Part shown: positions 1,646-44,831 of the stretch, piece after piece | Position numbering within the stretch: position 1 is the first letter of the stretch | Layout: each line of letters starts with the position of its first letter | NCBI GenBank assembly: GCA_001004105.1 | Contig: LCQK01000002.1 | Span: forward strand, 347-64,346 | From: Candidatus Jorgensenbacteria bacterium GW2011_GWB1_50_10 | GTDB taxonomy: Bacteria > Patescibacteriota > Minisyncoccia > UBA6257 > GWB1-50-10 | Reading direction: 5' to 3' | DNA length: 64,000 bases | Position numbers and translations under genes: made by a program | Notes under the pieces: model-generated | Told to the model about the DNA's origin: nothing | What the model saw: only the letters and a program-made list of their open reading frames with translations | Databases searched by the model: none

Positions 1646-3751
1646 ATGCCAAGACAGTATCCCATTGAAAAAGTCCGTGATATCGGAATAATCGCCCACA
1701 TTGATGCCGGGAAGACCACCGTTTCGGAACGGGTACTTTTCTACACCGGCGTCTCCCACAAAATCGGCGAGGTGCACGAGGGTGACACGGTGATGGACTG
1801 GATGGAACAGGAGCGGGAGCGCGGCATCACTATCACTTCGGCCGCGACCACCTGTTTTTGGACGCCGACTTACCGGGAGGGTGACAAGAATTTCGAGCAC
1901 CGCATCAACTTGATTGACACGCCCGGCCACATCGATTTCACCGTTGAAGTGAAGCGCAGTTTGCGCGTTTTGGACGGCGCGGTCGTGGTTTTTGATGGAG
2001 TCGCGGGCGTTGAGCCGCAATCGGAAACGAACTGGCACTACGCCGACGAATACAAGGTGCCGCGCTTATGTTTCATCAATAAACTTGACCGGACGGGCGC
2101 GAGTTTTGACAATAGTTACAGATCAATTTTGGAGCGGCTCACTCCCAACGCCGTTCTTCTTCAGATTCCCATCGGTCTGGAAAACCATTTTGAAGGCGTG
2201 ATTGATCTTTTGACGCGCCACGCCTTCCGCTTTGAAGGCGATAAAGGTGAGAAGACGGTTGGCGGCGAGGTTCCCGACAATCTTAAGGATGAAGTTGAAA
2301 AACAAAGGCATCATCTCATTGAAAAAATCGTCGAGCACGATGACGGAGCGATGCATGAATATCTGGGAGGCGGGGAGCCGGCTTTGGATAAATTAAAAGC
2401 GGTTTTACGCAAGGCGACGATCGGAAACGCTCTGGTGCCGGTGCTCTGCGGTTCGGCCCTGAAAAACAAGGGCGTCCAACTTGTGCTCGATGCGGTGGTG
2501 GACTATCTGCCCTCGCCCGCCGATCTGCCGCCGGTCAAAGGCATTAATCCCGAAACTCACGGTGAGGAGGAAAGGAAACCGAGTGACAATGAACCGCTCT
2601 CCGCACTCGCTTTTAAAATCGCCTCCGACCCTTTTGTGGGAACGCTCACTTTTTTCCGCGTTTACTCCGGTATCATGAAGCGCGGTAGCTATATTTTGAA
2701 TTCAACCAAAGGGGGACAGGAGCGAATCGGGAGAATTCTCCGGATGCACGCCAATCACCGGGAAGAAGCGGAGGAAATTTACGCGGGCGATTTGGGAGCG
2801 CTCGTGGGCCTCAAGGATACGACAACGGGCGATACATTAACTGACCCGGAGCATCCGGTTGTTTTGGAGCAAATCACTTTCCCCGAACCGGTTATCTCCG
2901 TTAGGATTGAGCCCAAGACCAAAGTTGACCAGGAAAGAATGGGCATCGCTCTCCGCCGTTTGGCGGAAGAAGACCCAACTTTCCGGCTTCGCGGAGACAT
3001 CGAAACGGGCGAGACTATCATCTCCGGTATGGGCGAACTGCATTTGGAAATTATCGTTGACCGGATGAAGCGGGAATTCAAAGTGGAAGCGAACGTCGGC
3101 CGGCCCCAGGTTGCTTACAAGGAAACCGTGAAGGGCACGGCGGAGGCCGAGGGCAAATATATTCGGCAGTCGGGCGGCCGGGGCCAGTACGGTCACGTCT
3201 GGCTTCGCTTAGAACCGATGGAACGAGGGCAGGGCTTTGAGTTCGTCGATGCCATCAAAGGCGGCATCATTCCCCAGGAATTCATCCCGGCCGCCGAAAA
3301 AGGCGTTCACGAAGCGGTGGATAAAGGCGTGCTCGCCGGTTACCCGGTCGTGGACGTGAAGGTCACCCTCTACGACGGTTCTTATCACGAAGTGGACTCC
3401 TCGGAAATCGCTTTCAAAATCGCCTCCGCCATGGCTTTTCAAGAGGCGGCCAGGCGCGCCAAAACAGTTCTTCTTGAACCGATAATGAAAGTGCAGGTCA
3501 TCGTCCCGCCAGATTTTTTGGGCGACGTGACCGGGGATTTGAGTTCCAAGCGAGGTAAGATAAAAGCCATGGGCGAGCGGGGAACGGTCCGCACCATCGA
3601 CGCGCTTGTCCCGCTCTCGGAAATGTTCGGCTATTCGACGACCTTGCGGAGTATGACCGAAGGCCGCGGCTCTTTCACGATGGAGTTTTCTCATTACGAA
3701 GAAGTGCCGGCCTCCGTCGCAACGGCAATAATTGAAGGGAAAAAGAAATAA
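1646..3751 (+). CDS. fusA: Elongation factor G
   Basis: GTPase G1 motif AHIDAGKTT, 701 aa, str-operon position. Confidence 0.95.
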
Positions 3752-41922: not shown

Positions 41923-41994
41923 GGGTGACTAGTTCAGTGGTAGAACGCTGTCCTGATAAGACAGAGGTCGCAGGTTCGATTCCTGCGTCACCCA
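41923..41994 (+). tRNA. tRNA-Ile (anticodon GAT); no CCA encoded
   Basis: Cloverleaf: acceptor GGGTGAC/GTCACCC, D stem GTTC/GAAC, anticodon stem CTGTC/GACAG with loop CTGATAA, T arm GCAGG-TTCGATT-CCTGC. Confidence 0.85.
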
Positions 41995-42001
41995 CTATTT
42001 T

Positions 42002-42694
42002 ATGGTTTCCGTTATTTACGAGGATGAGAATTTTATTGGTCTTTCAAAACCGGCCGGCGTTTTGGTTCACAAAACCGCAAAAAACGAGCAGGAAGAAACG
42101 GTAGCGGATTGGCTGGTTAACCGTTACCCGGAAGTGAAAAGCGTCGGGGATGCGCCGGGGGTCCGGCCAGGGCTGGTTCACCGATTAGACAAAGAAACTT
42201 CCGGAGTTCTCGTCGTTGCCCGAAACCAAAATAGCTTCAAGTATCTGAAAGGCCTTTTTCAAGAGCACAAAATTATCAAAAAATATGTTGCCCTTGTGCA
42301 CGGCAAACTTGAAGGAAACGGCGTGATTAACGTGCCGATAGGACTGAAACCCGGGACGGTAAAAAGAAGTGTGCGGGCCAAGAACATGAAGATGGTTAAG
42401 GAAGCGGTAACGGAATACAGAGTCCTGAAAAACTTTGAAAAAAGCGGCGAATTTTTCACTTTGGTCGAACTTATTCCTAAAACCGGTCGGACTCACCAAT
42501 TGCGGGTTCATTTGGCGAGCATTTATCATCCGGTTGTGGGGGATATACTTTATGGTCCGAAGAATAATTCCTTGGGCATGAAACGGCAATTTTTACACGC
42601 CAACTCATTAGAATTCGTGAACCAGGAAGGTGCCCGTCTCAGGTTAGAAGCGGGGTTACCCCGGGAACTTGAAGAAACTCTTTCAGCTCTTTAA
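42002..42694 (+). CDS. Pseudouridine synthase, RluA/RluD family
   Basis: HRLDKETSGVLV catalytic-Asp motif. Confidence 0.88.
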   Translation: MVSVIYEDENFIGLSKPAGVLVHKTAKNEQEETVADWLVNRYPEVKSVGDAPGVRPGLVHRLDKETSGVLVVARNQNSFKYLKGLFQEHKIIKKYVALVHGKLEGNGVINVPIGLKPGTVKRSVRAKNMKMVKEAVTEYRVLKNFEKSGEFFTLVELIPKTGRTHQLRVHLASIYHPVVGDILYGPKNNSLGMKRQFLHANSLEFVNQEGARLRLEAGLPRELEETLSAL

Positions 42695-42695
42695 T

Positions 42696-42731
42696 AACTA
42701 TTTTCTTATTCGCGCGAATAAGAAAATAGTT
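42696..42731. repeat. Perfect 36-nt palindrome AACTATTTTCTTATTCGC|GCGAATAAGAAAATAGTT immediately after the rluD stop
   Basis: Seen directly; a T-run follows 10 nt later. Confidence 0.5.
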
Positions 42732-42773
42732 AGAATTTGACTTTTTTATCCAAGAAATTATCATTACTCCATA

Positions 42774-43094
42774 ATGATTCCAACTGAAGTTTTAGAAAAA
42801 ATTAGGCCCGGCGCGCGGGTGAGAGTTTGGGAACGTATTAAAGAAGGGGATAAGGAGCGGCAAAGCGCTTTTGAAGGCATCGTTTTGGCGCGCAAGCATG
42901 GGGATGAGGCGGGCGCGACTTTCACCGTCCGGGCCATTTTGCAGGAAGTGGGCGTTGAGAAAGTTTATCCCGTTCATTCGCCGGTTATCGCGAAAGTGGA
43001 GGTTATTTCCAGCCCGAAAAAAGTAAGCCGCGCCAAGCTTTATTTTTTGAGGAAGCTTTCGCCTAAGAGAGTGGCGGAGAAACTAAAGATTTAG
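42774..43094 (+). CDS. rplS: 50S ribosomal protein L19
   Basis: L19-like sequence. Confidence 0.92.
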   Translation: MIPTEVLEKIRPGARVRVWERIKEGDKERQSAFEGIVLARKHGDEAGATFTVRAILQEVGVEKVYPVHSPVIAKVEVISSPKKVSRAKLYFLRKLSPKRVAEKLKI

Positions 43095-43182
43095 ATTTCA
43101 TTAGATTCCGATCCCCACAGTCTTTTTTATTTCATTATATTTGGTATACGCTATAAACTTGAGGTATGATATAATAAGAAAA

Positions 43183-43848
43183 ATGGGGAAAAGGGGACCG
43201 AAGCCGAAAAGAAAGGTGGAAATCAGATGGTCGCCGGAATTTGCTTATGCCCTCGGGCTTTTGGCTACCGATGGGAATCTTTCTTCGGATGGCCGGCACC
43301 TTGATCTCACTTCTCAAGATAAAGAACAGCTTTTGAATTTTATGAAATGTCTTAGGATCAAGGTGGAAATTGGTTATAAAACTTCCGGGTTGAGCGGAGA
43401 AAGAACAGCCCGGGTTCAGTTCGGAGATGTCAATTTTTATAAATTTTTATTAAACATCGGTTTTTCACCCAACAAGTCGAAAACCATAGGGAGATTGGAT
43501 ATTCCGGATAAGTATTTCTTTGATTTTCTCCGAGGTCATTTTGACGGCGACGGTACTTTTTATTCTTATTGGGATCCGCGCTGGAGGTCGAGTTTTATGT
43601 TTTACACGGTTTTCATTTCGGCCAGCAAAGGTCATATTCAGTGGTTGAGAAAAAAAATTAATGAAACGTTGCCTATAAAGGGGCACATAACCAAGAGTAA
43701 AACCCAATCCACTTATAATCTTAAATACGCTAAAAGAGAATCATTAAAATTACTGAAAAAAGTTTATTATTCTCATAAAGTAATTTGCCTTTCTCGCAAA
43801 CGTTTGAAGATTGAAAAAGCTTTGGCTATAATGGGAGCGAAGCTATAA
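43183..43848 (+). CDS. LAGLIDADG homing endonuclease (double-motif, free-standing)
   Basis: Motifs LGLLATDGNLS and LRGHFDGDGTF; AT-rich; TATAAT about 10 nt upstream. The listed ORF starts at TTG 43141. Confidence 0.75.
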   Translation: MGKRGPKPKRKVEIRWSPEFAYALGLLATDGNLSSDGRHLDLTSQDKEQLLNFMKCLRIKVEIGYKTSGLSGERTARVQFGDVNFYKFLLNIGFSPNKSKTIGRLDIPDKYFFDFLRGHFDGDGTFYSYWDPRWRSSFMFYTVFISASKGHIQWLRKKINETLPIKGHITKSKTQSTYNLKYAKRESLKLLKKVYYSHKVICLSRKRLKIEKALAIMGAKL

Positions 43849-43849
43849 T

Positions 43850-43934
43850 GCCCAGGTGGCGGAACTGGAATACGCGTGCGTTCGAGGGGCGCATGCCGCA
43901 AGGCTTGCGGGTTCAAATCCCGCCCTGGGCACCA
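43850..43934 (+). tRNA. tRNA-Leu, type II with a long variable arm; anticodon most likely GAG; CCA encoded
   Basis: Acceptor GCCCAGG/CCTGGGC; T arm GCGGG-TTCAAAT-CCCGC; 13-nt variable arm; discriminator A. Alignment to canonical tRNA-Leu(GAG) puts GAG at positions 34-36 but gives C at position 33. A reading as Ser-CGA would need a G-G mismatch in the anticodon stem. Confidence 0.7.
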
Positions 43935-44001
43935 GTAAGGAATTTGCAAGCAAGAAACGAATTGGCGGTTTCGTTTGGGGGAAAGAAAAATTTTTAATCA
44001 T

Positions 44002-44451
44002 ATGGAAACAGAAAATACAACTTTCAGTTATGCTGGCTTTTGGAAAAGATTTGCCGCTTTTATCATAGATATGTTTATCGTGTCTATCGGTGGCTTTATT
44101 ATTGGTTTTATATTCGGAGTTCCCTACGATGTTCTCACTGGTAAAGCCGAGTTCGCTGGATTTGCCGAAGATTATATTCTTAGTTTCATTTTGAGTTTTT
44201 TGCTTGTTTGGATTTACCAAGCAGTTATGGAAAGTTCTTCTAAACAAGCGACTCTTGGCAAAATGGCTCTTGGAATAATAGTTACTGATTTGTCTGGCAA
44301 GCGTGTATCTTTCGGAAAGGCATCGGGTCGCTACTTTGGGCAGATACTTTCCGGGTTTATCCTCGGCATAGGATTTCTCATGATTGCTTTTACTGCAAGA
44401 AAACAGGGGCTTCACGATAAAATGGCTGGTTGTCTTGTTGTGAATAAATAA
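44002..44451 (+). CDS. RDD-family membrane protein
   Basis: Blocks FWKRFAAFIIDMFI and ATLGKMALGI...GLHDKMAGCLVV are typical of RDD. Confidence 0.65.
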   Translation: METENTTFSYAGFWKRFAAFIIDMFIVSIGGFIIGFIFGVPYDVLTGKAEFAGFAEDYILSFILSFLLVWIYQAVMESSSKQATLGKMALGIIVTDLSGKRVSFGKASGRYFGQILSGFILGIGFLMIAFTARKQGLHDKMAGCLVVNK

Positions 44452-44831
44452 TGTTTCCATATCGCCGATTTTTATTTCCCCGAGAAGACTATCCGGAAAA
44501 TTGGGACGAATTGAGAAAAGCGGTTTATCGCAGAGACGGATGGCAATGTCAGCAGTGCGGTGCTAGAAATATCCAACTCCACGCCCACCACCAAACTCCG
44601 TTGTCTGCGGGTGGCTCTAACGACATGAGCAACCTGATTACTCTTTGTAAAAATTGTCATATTGATGACCATCCGCACATGTGGTGGGGTAGGTGGAAAG
44701 AAAACAATCCCCAAACCGTTCTCGCACTTCGTATTATTGTTCTCGCCATAGCAATCTCGTTACTTATAATATCTGGCTTTAGTTGGTGGAAAGTTATAAT
44801 TTTAATAATTGTACTTCGACCTTTATTCTGA
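44451..44831 (+). CDS. HNH endonuclease domain protein with a C-terminal transmembrane anchor
   Basis: Block CQQCG...LHAHHQ...NL..LCKNCH, followed by a hydrophobic LALRIIVLAIAISLLIISGFSWWKVIILIIV tail. Confidence 0.65.
   Translation: MFPYRRFLFPREDYPENWDELRKAVYRRDGWQCQQCGARNIQLHAHHQTPLSAGGSNDMSNLITLCKNCHIDDHPHMWWGRWKENNPQTVLALRIIVLAIAISLLIISGFSWWKVIILIIVLRPLF

Follow-up and report, generated by a model that had tools for sequence, protein, structure and literature searches.

What is a gene for a DNA-cutting enzyme doing one nucleotide away from a tRNA gene? The question is raised by a locus in a window of 64,000 nucleotides, the whole stretch of DNA analysed here, from the contig LCQK01000002.1 of Candidatus Jorgensenbacteria bacterium GW2011_GWB1_50_10. 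There, an open reading frame (ORF) with two LAGLIDADG motifs stands between rplS, the gene for ribosomal protein L19, and a gene for tRNA-Leu(GAG). To our knowledge, homing endonucleases are thought to persist in essential genes only within self-splicing introns or inteins, and otherwise in harmless intergenic DNA. The family of this ORF appears to have entered the tRNA gene itself, with a duplicate as compensation, and to have left a fossil in hundreds of genomes. The ORF is probably a free-standing monomeric LAGLIDADG homing-endonuclease gene, a selfish element lying 5' of tRNA-Leu(GAG) and 3' of rplS; its family is large, undescribed, and fixed between these two genes.

The ORF lies on the forward strand, from the ATG at 43183 to the stop codon TAA at 43846-43848, and encodes 221 amino acids. 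An in-frame TTG at 43141 is an improbable start, because the homologues start with MGKRG at that ATG. A preliminary description of the locus had presented a free-standing ORF with two intact LAGLIDADG motifs, AT-rich relative to its neighbours, inserted after rplS, with a TATAAT of its own and a stop codon 1 nt before tRNA-Leu. All of these points hold. Both motifs are present in the 221 residues, the T at 43849 is the sole base between the stop codon and the tRNA, and the TATAAT is at 43170-43175, 7 nt before the ATG. The ORF has a GC content of 0.390 against 0.491 for the window, which places it at the 4th percentile of 666-nt windows, and its GC content at third codon positions (GC3) is 0.405, against a mean of 0.579 in long ORFs. 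That it is an insert after rplS is confirmed by the empty rplS-tRNA junctions of 45 relatives, discussed below.

The first motif, AYALGLLATDG, covers residues 21-31 (nucleotides 43243-43275) and contains the catalytic D30; the second, DFLRGHFDGDG, covers residues 114-124 (43522-43554) and contains the catalytic D123. Both aspartates are unchanged in 70/70 family members, as are K98 and K184. LAGLIDADG homing endonucleases make site-specific double-strand cuts in targets of 14-40 bp, leaving 4-nt 3' overhangs. In monomers, each domain contributes one motif helix to the interface, an acidic residue ends each helix, and the beta-sheets form a DNA-binding saddle. An AlphaFold2 model computed from 25 homologues (predicted local distance difference test, pLDDT, 88.5; predicted template modelling score, pTM, 0.87) has an alpha-beta-beta-alpha-beta-beta-alpha unit repeated twice, with the motifs modelled as helices H18-30 and H109-122. 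When this model is compared with the PDB by Foldseek, 112 matches have E <= 0.001, and all 50 listed are LAGLIDADG-fold proteins: the top match is I-Tsp061I (2DCH; E 2e-11, template modelling scores, TM, 0.69/0.74), followed by intein endonucleases, I-AniI, I-SceI and I-DmoI. The best sequence match in the PDB is again I-Tsp061I, an archaeal intron endonuclease (E 5.8e-5). A search of NCBIfam with the protein gave no match, and many homologues carry a precomputed match to PF14528. Between the closest pairs of endonucleases, the ratio of nonsynonymous to synonymous substitution rates (dN/dS) is 0.06-0.17, which indicates strong purifying selection. The protein can thus be classed as a monomeric LAGLIDADG enzyme; its conserved catalytic residues and the purifying selection on it point to nuclease activity, and it seems rather probable that the enzyme is active in the present day.

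An intein can be ruled out: the two LAGLIDADG domains fill all 221 amino acids, with no flanking extein sequence and no match to a Hint domain. An identical protein is recorded in Candidatus Jorgensenbacteria GW2011_GWA1_48_13 (Patescibacteria, or Candidate Phyla Radiation, CPR), where its GenBank label is "Intein-containing protein"; most homologues are labelled "hypothetical protein". The first name is misleading, because the protein has neither extein nor Hint domain, and is a by-product of the LAGLIDADG_3 profile.

A protein search yields more than 3,400 clusters of homologues at 90% identity, the top 120 being about 70% identical and 215-225 amino acids long. With one genome scanned per GTDB species, at least 439 species carry the gene, nearly all in Parcubacteria/Paceibacteria-type lineages. 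The context of the gene was read in the best 80 related loci, designated below by the letter L and a number. A tRNA-Leu(GAG) gene on the same strand begins 0-24 nt past the stop codon (median 4) in 62/80 loci, 63 with the window, and overlaps the end of the ORF in 9 further loci, so that it is directly 3' in 71/80; the other 9 contigs stop before a tRNA could fit. On the other side, rplS is directly 5' of the endonuclease gene in 74/80 loci, with a gene for an RluA-type pseudouridine synthase 5' of rplS in 44 of the 80. Two loci labelled as Omnitrophica (L007) and Gammaproteobacteria (L017) share the rplS-endonuclease-tRNA module, and may be mis-binned contigs of Patescibacteria. We found no description of the family in the literature on LAGLIDADG proteins with CPR, Patescibacteria or Parcubacteria, or on free-standing LAGLIDADG proteins. 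Published work on LAGLIDADG proteins of CPR bacteria concerns insertions in rRNA genes (PMC11270868), and the published work on tRNA introns of Patescibacteria reports no LAGLIDADG genes there.

How constant is the occupation of this site? An early reading of the data was that of a conserved, possibly domesticated pair of genes. It was overturned by a scan of metagenome contigs sampled by alignment of rplS, hence independently of the endonuclease, which contains 45 empty, 7 occupied and 4 remnant loci. Across the 124 loci that have both genes, the spacer from rplS to the tRNA has a bimodal length: 0-193 nt in the 45 loci without endonuclease, about 690-920 nt in most of the 72 occupied ones. 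Genomes that are close to each other can disagree. Locus L071 is occupied and L120 empty, with rplS genes 94% identical in nucleotides; L029 is occupied and L098 empty, with 92% identity; in these discordant pairs, homology stops 0-52 nt past the rplS stop codon. The preliminary description had proposed to date the insertion by comparing this junction in relatives. The comparison does reveal real empty sites, but the insertion is neither recent nor private to this genome.

Between occupied and empty loci lie various stages of decay, seen with a DNA profile of the gene. In the remnants L102 and L114, all but the last ~270 nt has gone, L108 is deleted internally, and L148 is more decayed; L100 and L124 retain just the last 40-55 nt. 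The end proximal to the tRNA is the portion always retained. The deletion in L114 spans the interval between two TTGG microhomologies, and the ~89 leftover codons of this remnant are still open. The remnants in L102, L114 and L108, seemingly independent, share their start point, at codon W134 (profile position 415-417). They could descend from a single deletion, or the same deletion could have recurred at a TTGG microhomology with the D-loop of the tRNA fossil described next. Together, presence, absence and remnants form the pattern of invasion, decay and loss that is expected of a homing endonuclease gene at a fixed site.

The most telling trace of the invasion lies upstream of the gene. In front of the start codons there is a conserved element with consensus ATTGGTA(T/G)ACGCTAT(T/A)ACCTTGAGG(T), followed directly by a TATAAT-like hexamer; in the window, it reads TTGGTATACGCTATAAACTTGAGGT, at 43141-43165. 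It consists of parts of a tRNA gene in proper order and spacing, namely the D-loop, the 3' strand of the D-stem, the 5' strand of the anticodon stem, and the anticodon loop. In every case the match ends at tRNA position 36-38, around 37/38 in the window, and locus L012 retains a complete 5' half, GCGCGGGTGGCGAAATTGGTAGACGCTACTACCTTGAG. An nhmmer search with a 38-nt profile of the tRNA 5' half was too insensitive (6/70), and the explicit pattern GG[CT]A[GT]A[CT]G[CT].{5,8}[CT]TGA[GT] was used instead, with shuffled spacers as a control. The pattern is present in 59/70 occupied spacers, against an average of 0.015 in the shuffled spacers, and in 0/45 empty spacers. It is found in only 27/124 real tRNA genes: the element is better conserved than the living tRNAs. 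We have little doubt that it is the fossil 5' half of a split tRNA-Leu(GAG).

The conservation of this fossil probably has a reason. A promoter scan of the window gives TTGGTA-18-TATGAT at 43141-43170, whose -35 box, TTGGTA (43141-43146), is the D-loop of the fossil. The candidate -10 box is either TATGAT (43165-43170) or the overlapping TATAAT mentioned above. A -10-like hexamer follows the fossil within 25 nt in 54/59 loci, and in 23 loci TTGGYA and the -10 box are 18 nt apart. No Shine-Dalgarno sequence precedes the ATG of the endonuclease, and the predicted mRNA would be leaderless or nearly so, since the -10 box ends 7 nt before this ATG. The D-loop thus likely acts as the -35 box of a putative endonuclease promoter, and the orphaned 5' half would have been kept because of this role; that the fossil is also an operator for the endonuclease protein is speculation.

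A second predicted promoter lies at the other end of the gene. The hexamers TTGAAG (43804-43809) and TATAAT (43827-43832) are separated by a 17-nt spacer, and the -10 box ends 17 nt before the 5' end of the tRNA. They fall within the codons of the C-terminal helix R-L-K-I-E-K-A-L-A-I-M, which the family conserves as R-L-K...A-I-I. A -10-like hexamer is found 16-26 nt before the tRNA in 34/70 loci, 22 of which also have TTGAA(A/G) at 17-nt spacing. Codon choice in this helix is biased toward the promoter consensus: the codon of Leu208 is TTG in 31/39 cases against a background of 0.23 (P 1e-13), that of Ile216 is ATA in 32/43 against 0.33 (P 3e-8), and that of Ala215 is GCT in 13/21 against 0.25 (P 4e-4). 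The last codons of the gene thus hold a near-consensus sigma-70 promoter, as predicted from sequence, that faces the intact tRNA next to it. With the embedded TTGAA(A/G)-17-TATAAT keeping the tRNA expressed, an insertion of 0.75 kb after rplS would be tolerated, and decay would always spare the 3' end of the gene because this end drives the tRNA.

The tRNA itself, called by ARAGORN at 43850-43934, is uninterrupted and has an encoded CCA; its Rfam tRNA score is 44 bits, for a gathering score of 29. A whole-window scan of Rfam at gathering thresholds gives only a tRNA-Ile (41923-41994), the tRNA-Leu being lost to speed filters, which is not counter-evidence. The preliminary description had already considered the tRNA to be uninterrupted, and had remarked that its anticodon loop would be unusual, with a C at position 33, if the anticodon were GAG. 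Both statements hold: the anticodon is GAG, at 43884-43886, in the loop U-C-G-A-G-G-G (43882-43888), which has C33 at 43883 and G38 at 43888. U33 is near-universal in tRNA anticodon loops, and the fossil upstream of the ORF retains it, unlike the living tRNA. C33 is not a sequencing error, since the identical loop is found in three other assemblies (L007, L050 and L060), but it is a minority allele, TTGAGGT being read in 57/70 occupied loci. The C33 loop is found only beside endonuclease genes, in 3/70 occupied loci against 0/45 empty ones, a difference that is not significant with such small numbers. Locus L050 has C33 and its close relative L071 has U33; in L060, C33 sits on a different anticodon stem.

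Do the endonuclease and the tRNA travel together? The distances between tRNAs follow none of the other distances, those between endonucleases included (rho 0.007), and the control tRNAs (His, Ile, Val, Arg) are likewise uncorrelated with L19; the idea of a single travelling cassette was therefore dropped. In four pairs of loci (L071/L120, L050/L120, L145/L157 and L093/L110), the rplS genes are 86-94% identical and the tRNA-Leu(GAG) genes differ at 16-31 positions, in the D-arm, the anticodon stem and the variable arm; where the rplS identity is 92-94%, the tRNAs differ at 16 positions, a divergence far above that of rplS. Such divergence within close pairs suggests local allele replacement, though the divergence of tRNAs genome-wide is also high there.

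If the fossil points to the tRNA as the site of entry, one would like to know where more distant relatives of the enzyme are found. A profile search among 1.8 billion representatives delimits a distant family of 231 clusters at 50% identity, at E <= 1e-30. A tRNA-Leu gene adjoins 8/9 of the distant relatives with readable DNA, that is, 7/8 contigs that were looked up and a paralogue in L117. The relative in L162 overlaps the start of a tRNA-Leu(GAG), and that in L164 is at the canonical rplS site; those in L165, L167 and L168 are 8-33 nt upstream of a tRNA-Leu(CAA), those in L163 and L117 just 3' of a tRNA-Leu(CAA), and that in L169 is 3' of a tRNA-Leu(CAG). The relative in L166 lies ~30 nt upstream of a tRNA-Leu(CAA) that holds a group I intron: at 788-1043, the tRNA is split in its anticodon loop by Intron_gpI (Rfam 59 bits, E 5.5e-13), a layout that looks like collaborative homing. 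Adjacency to tRNA-Leu in 8/9 cases is far beyond chance, and suggests tRNA-Leu DNA as the target of the family. For the enzyme of the window, a cleavage target in tRNA-Leu DNA, as read from the fossil and from this linkage, stands about as good a chance of being right as of being wrong.

Some details of these relatives deserve mention. The intron-bearing tRNA-Leu(CAA) of L166 is not called by ARAGORN. The paralogue of L117 (791-1577) is 47% identical, begins 5 nt past the 3' end of the tRNA-Leu(CAA), and has an in-frame TAA at ~1048; the rplS-tRNA-Leu(GAG) junction of this contig is empty, its spacer being 68 nt long. The relatives in L165 (58-975), L167 (605-1459) and L168 (401-1513) are GC-rich and have 60-145 extra amino acids at the N-terminus, a region resembling a helix-turn-helix domain (such as ...AEIADVLGCSATTIARRMREYGLP); their hosts are probably outside Patescibacteria. 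An apparent N-terminal extension in L163 turned out to be an artefact of an ORF call that crosses the upstream tRNA-Leu(CAA).

It is natural to try to assemble these elements into a scenario. The anticodon loop near position 37/38 is the classic position of tRNA introns. The ancestral element would have entered the tRNA-Leu(GAG) gene there and, having no splicing intron, the locus would have regained its tRNA by way of a duplicate: a complete tRNA gene, or only a fresh 5' half that was attached to the 3' half of the old one. The enzyme would cut endonuclease-less alleles of tRNA-Leu(GAG) in or near the anticodon arm, and repair templated by the occupied allele, in which rplS and the tRNA provide the homology, would copy the gene in. 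Taken further, this could be a third mode of invasion of an essential gene by a homing endonuclease gene, with neither intron nor intein, a "bring your own spare part" invasion: the element would cut the anticodon arm of tRNA-Leu, bring a replacement tRNA or 5' half with a promoter in its own C-terminal codons, and recycle the old 5' half as a -35 box and operator. Such an arrangement, in which the endonuclease gene would be switched on only inside its proper target, is a tentative proposal that we consider less likely than not. If true, pressure from the endonuclease would add to the unusual diversity of the anticodon arm of tRNA-Leu(GAG) in Patescibacteria, and C33/G38 would be a cleavage-escape variant.

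Several results weigh against reading the gene as a homing element aimed at this tRNA. With 21.7 bits, the protein falls just under the 22.5 cut-off of the Pfam profile LAGLIDADG_3, and its membership is therefore based on the motifs, the sequence match to I-Tsp061I and the predicted fold. The -10-like hexamers before the tRNA could in part be a by-product of the A-I-I codons, and a Tyr-Tyr-Asn motif elsewhere in the ORF also gives TATAAT-like hexamers. An intact tRNA-Leu(GAG) persists in the occupied allele, and self-cleavage should therefore be a problem. Immunity through the sequence of the tRNA is unsupported: occupied and empty alleles have no systematic base difference, the largest difference in frequency being 0.23; the fossil-type anticodon stem CTACC is weakly depleted in occupied loci (12/70 against 15/45, P 0.07); and unusual loop variants are not enriched in them (P 0.25). 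The gene is also old. Synonymous divergence (dS) is at least 1.08 even in the closest pairs, and 85% of pairs are saturated. Distances between endonucleases increase with those between hosts, with rho 0.42 for L19 (Mantel P 0.002) and 0.55 for RluA, the control correlation between L19 and RluA being 0.62; in a few pairs, such as L014/L063, the endonucleases are more alike than the hosts. The GC3 of the gene tracks that of the host (r 0.83). Among all pairs compared there are no near-identical copies in distant hosts, and nothing that would indicate a recent transfer between species. The family is essentially absent from the viral contigs of IMG/VR, with one match at 35% identity, and GenBank phages gave only LAGLIDADG proteins of at most 31% identity, so that a phage origin was discarded.

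Saturation, host tracking and absence from viruses fit a long vertical residence, but they also fit a domesticated host gene, vertically inherited and often lost, which would no longer be homing and would serve, for example, as a DNA-binding regulator of the locus of rplS and tRNA-Leu or as a cellular nuclease. The low dN/dS and the highly conserved beta-sheet surface for nucleic-acid binding agree with such a role, and a target-like fossil that overlaps the gene's own promoter would suit autoregulation. A host function is harder to reconcile with absence from about three quarters of the relatives selected by rplS, with occupancy that differs between genomes whose rplS genes are 92-94% identical, and with the existence of deletion remnants and of a stop-codon pseudogene. 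Both catalytic aspartates are invariant, something a pure binding protein has no need for, and the gene is AT-richer than host genes in 69/70 loci, where its GC3 is under that of the host. We therefore regard domestication as unlikely. The AT-richness, being a trait of the whole family, is no indicator of recent arrival. What emerges is a selfish gene that would be an old resident, repeatedly lost and inherited mostly vertically over the depths sampled; since nothing points to recent transfer from one species to another, any homing would take place within populations.

Two other explanations concern the nature of the insertion itself. The gene could be the remnant of an ORF-containing group I intron of tRNA-Leu(GAG), with a decayed ribozyme and the fossil as 5' exon. 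Bacterial tRNA group I introns do sit in the anticodon loop, where the fossil ends (PMC13011429), and the family member of L166 stands just upstream of a tRNA split by such an intron. Yet no group I intron signal is detected in 42600-44200 at E <= 1, where Rfam found only the tRNA. A ribozyme would have no room either, with 17 nt between the fossil and the ATG and 1 nt between the stop codon and the tRNA. The downstream tRNA has a 5' half of its own and is complete, hence is no 3' exon, and occupied loci have no 3'-half fossil beyond the intact tRNA. Since no ribozyme remains, the element is not an intron today; the intron remnant is improbable as its present state, and may describe its origin. 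The preliminary description, which had seen in the endonuclease the mark of an intron or intein remnant or of an insertion hotspot, had good grounds to suspect an intron-like site, given the fossil broken in the anticodon loop; nothing of a ribozyme or an intein was found. Alternatively, the endonuclease could be cargo of a larger integrative island, with 43095-44831 as one element that uses tRNA-Leu(GAG) as its attachment site. Low GC content does continue past the tRNA through genes for an RDD-family membrane protein and an HNH endonuclease, gene content there is hypervariable, and among 38 contigs whose end falls in the 4 kb downstream, 23 break no farther than ~125 nt from the 3' end of the tRNA; in L120 (3518-5474) and L117 (~3593-3623), a short island is followed by an orphan tRNA 3' end. 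These orphan ends, however, occur only in loci without endonuclease. The endonuclease is on the 5' side, linked to rplS and to the tRNA and to no downstream gene, and the RDD and HNH proteins have no homologue in any of the 80 related loci. The window contains no integrase, and no second copy of the last 25 nt of the tRNA with up to 3 mismatches. An island is thus the least plausible of these explanations, and a very remote one.

How does the probable homing element compare with known systems? Integrative elements insert into tRNA genes and restore them from their own copy of the 3' end. As in those elements, a disrupted tRNA would here be kept functional by a duplicate part, with an orphan fragment at the border; unlike them, it is the 5' half that is duplicated, the break is in the anticodon loop, there is no integrase, and entry would be by double-strand-break repair. 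The protein resembles the archaeal LAGLIDADG_3-type enzymes I-Tsp061I and I-DmoI, monomers of ~200 amino acids with two motifs and two alpha-beta-beta-alpha-beta-beta-alpha units, but those are encoded in rRNA introns, whereas this gene is free-standing, and identity is only ~18%. It also differs from the LAGLIDADG proteins described so far in rRNA insertions of CPR bacteria, which are mostly single-domain (PMC11270868). In its presumed mode of action it is most like the free-standing phage endonucleases directed at conserved neighbouring genes. The closest case is SegB of phage T4, a free-standing endonuclease gene beside tRNA genes that homes without an intron (PMC3984707); the gene lies in a tRNA cluster, the recognition site of the enzyme includes a conserved tRNA motif, and homing co-converts tRNA genes (PMC2330249). 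SegB, however, is a GIY-YIG enzyme carried by a phage, and ours is a LAGLIDADG enzyme on a cellular chromosome; the target of SegB is in the T-psi-C arm, and the one suggested by the fossil is in the anticodon arm. The abstract on SegB mentions no split-tRNA fossil and no promoter within its ORF (PMC2330249). Finally, collaborative, or trans, homing (F-CphI/psbA, mobE/I-TevIII) also has a free-standing endonuclease beside a gene with an intron-insertion position that matches the presumed target (PMC3984707, PMC2790892), but the tRNA of the window has no intron, so that no intron protects the occupied allele. From the phage enzymes, the gene is set apart by the nuclease family, the chromosomal seat, the split-tRNA fossil and its predicted reuse as a promoter, and the predicted tRNA promoter within the ORF.

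If confirmed, the family would offer alleles that are occupied, decaying or empty, a natural series in which to follow the life cycle of an endonuclease in uncultivated bacteria. It would also be a source of new, compact monomeric LAGLIDADG scaffolds of ~220 amino acids, with a probable target, the anticodon arm of tRNA-Leu, that can be read from the fossil, and a case in which coding and promoter information overlap and are subject to measurable selection. The database names "hypothetical" and "intein-containing" would have to be corrected.

Table 1. Features of the rplS-tRNA-Leu(GAG) locus, in window coordinates.
Feature	Position	Strand	Basis or remark
rplS (ribosomal protein L19)	42774..43094	+	Pfam Ribosomal_L19, E 2.2e-29; conserved left flank of the insertion site
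Fossil tRNA-Leu(GAG) 5' half (very probable)	43141..43165	+	pattern found in 59/70 occupied spacers
Putative endonuclease promoter	43141..43175	+	promoter scan
Free-standing monomeric two-domain LAGLIDADG endonuclease gene	43183..43848	+	ORF, motifs, fold
Embedded promoter for the tRNA (predicted)	43804..43832	+	promoter scan, codon bias
Intact tRNA-Leu(GAG), long variable arm, encoded CCA	43850..43934	+	ARAGORN, Rfam
AT-rich variable block 3' of the tRNA	43935..44831	+	Pfam RDD and HNH, GC

We now turn to the DNA downstream of the tRNA. The low-GC block, which ends at 44831, comprises the gene for the RDD-family membrane protein (44003-44451, GC 0.39) and that for the HNH endonuclease (44451-44831, GC 0.43), both identified by Pfam; the HNH protein has 126 amino acids and a hydrophobic tail. 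This block probably lies outside the endonuclease element. Gene content 3' of the tRNA is unrelated from one locus to another, be they occupied or empty: clusters shared among the 338 downstream ORFs reach 9 members at most. Clustering these ORFs in search of a conserved island cargo turned up no family associated with the endonuclease. The stretch 3' of the tRNA forms a hot spot of plasticity separate from the endonuclease site, and the rplS-tRNA-Leu(GAG) junction is one at which assemblies of Patescibacteria break. The arrangement in L120 and L117 resembles attL/attR sites, without an integrase, and the interval 3411-5245 of L093 also belongs to the variable 3' region. The gap between the tRNA and gyrB is 1173 nt long in the window, against 580 nt in L041 and 2020 nt in L034, two relatives from Jorgensenbacteria.

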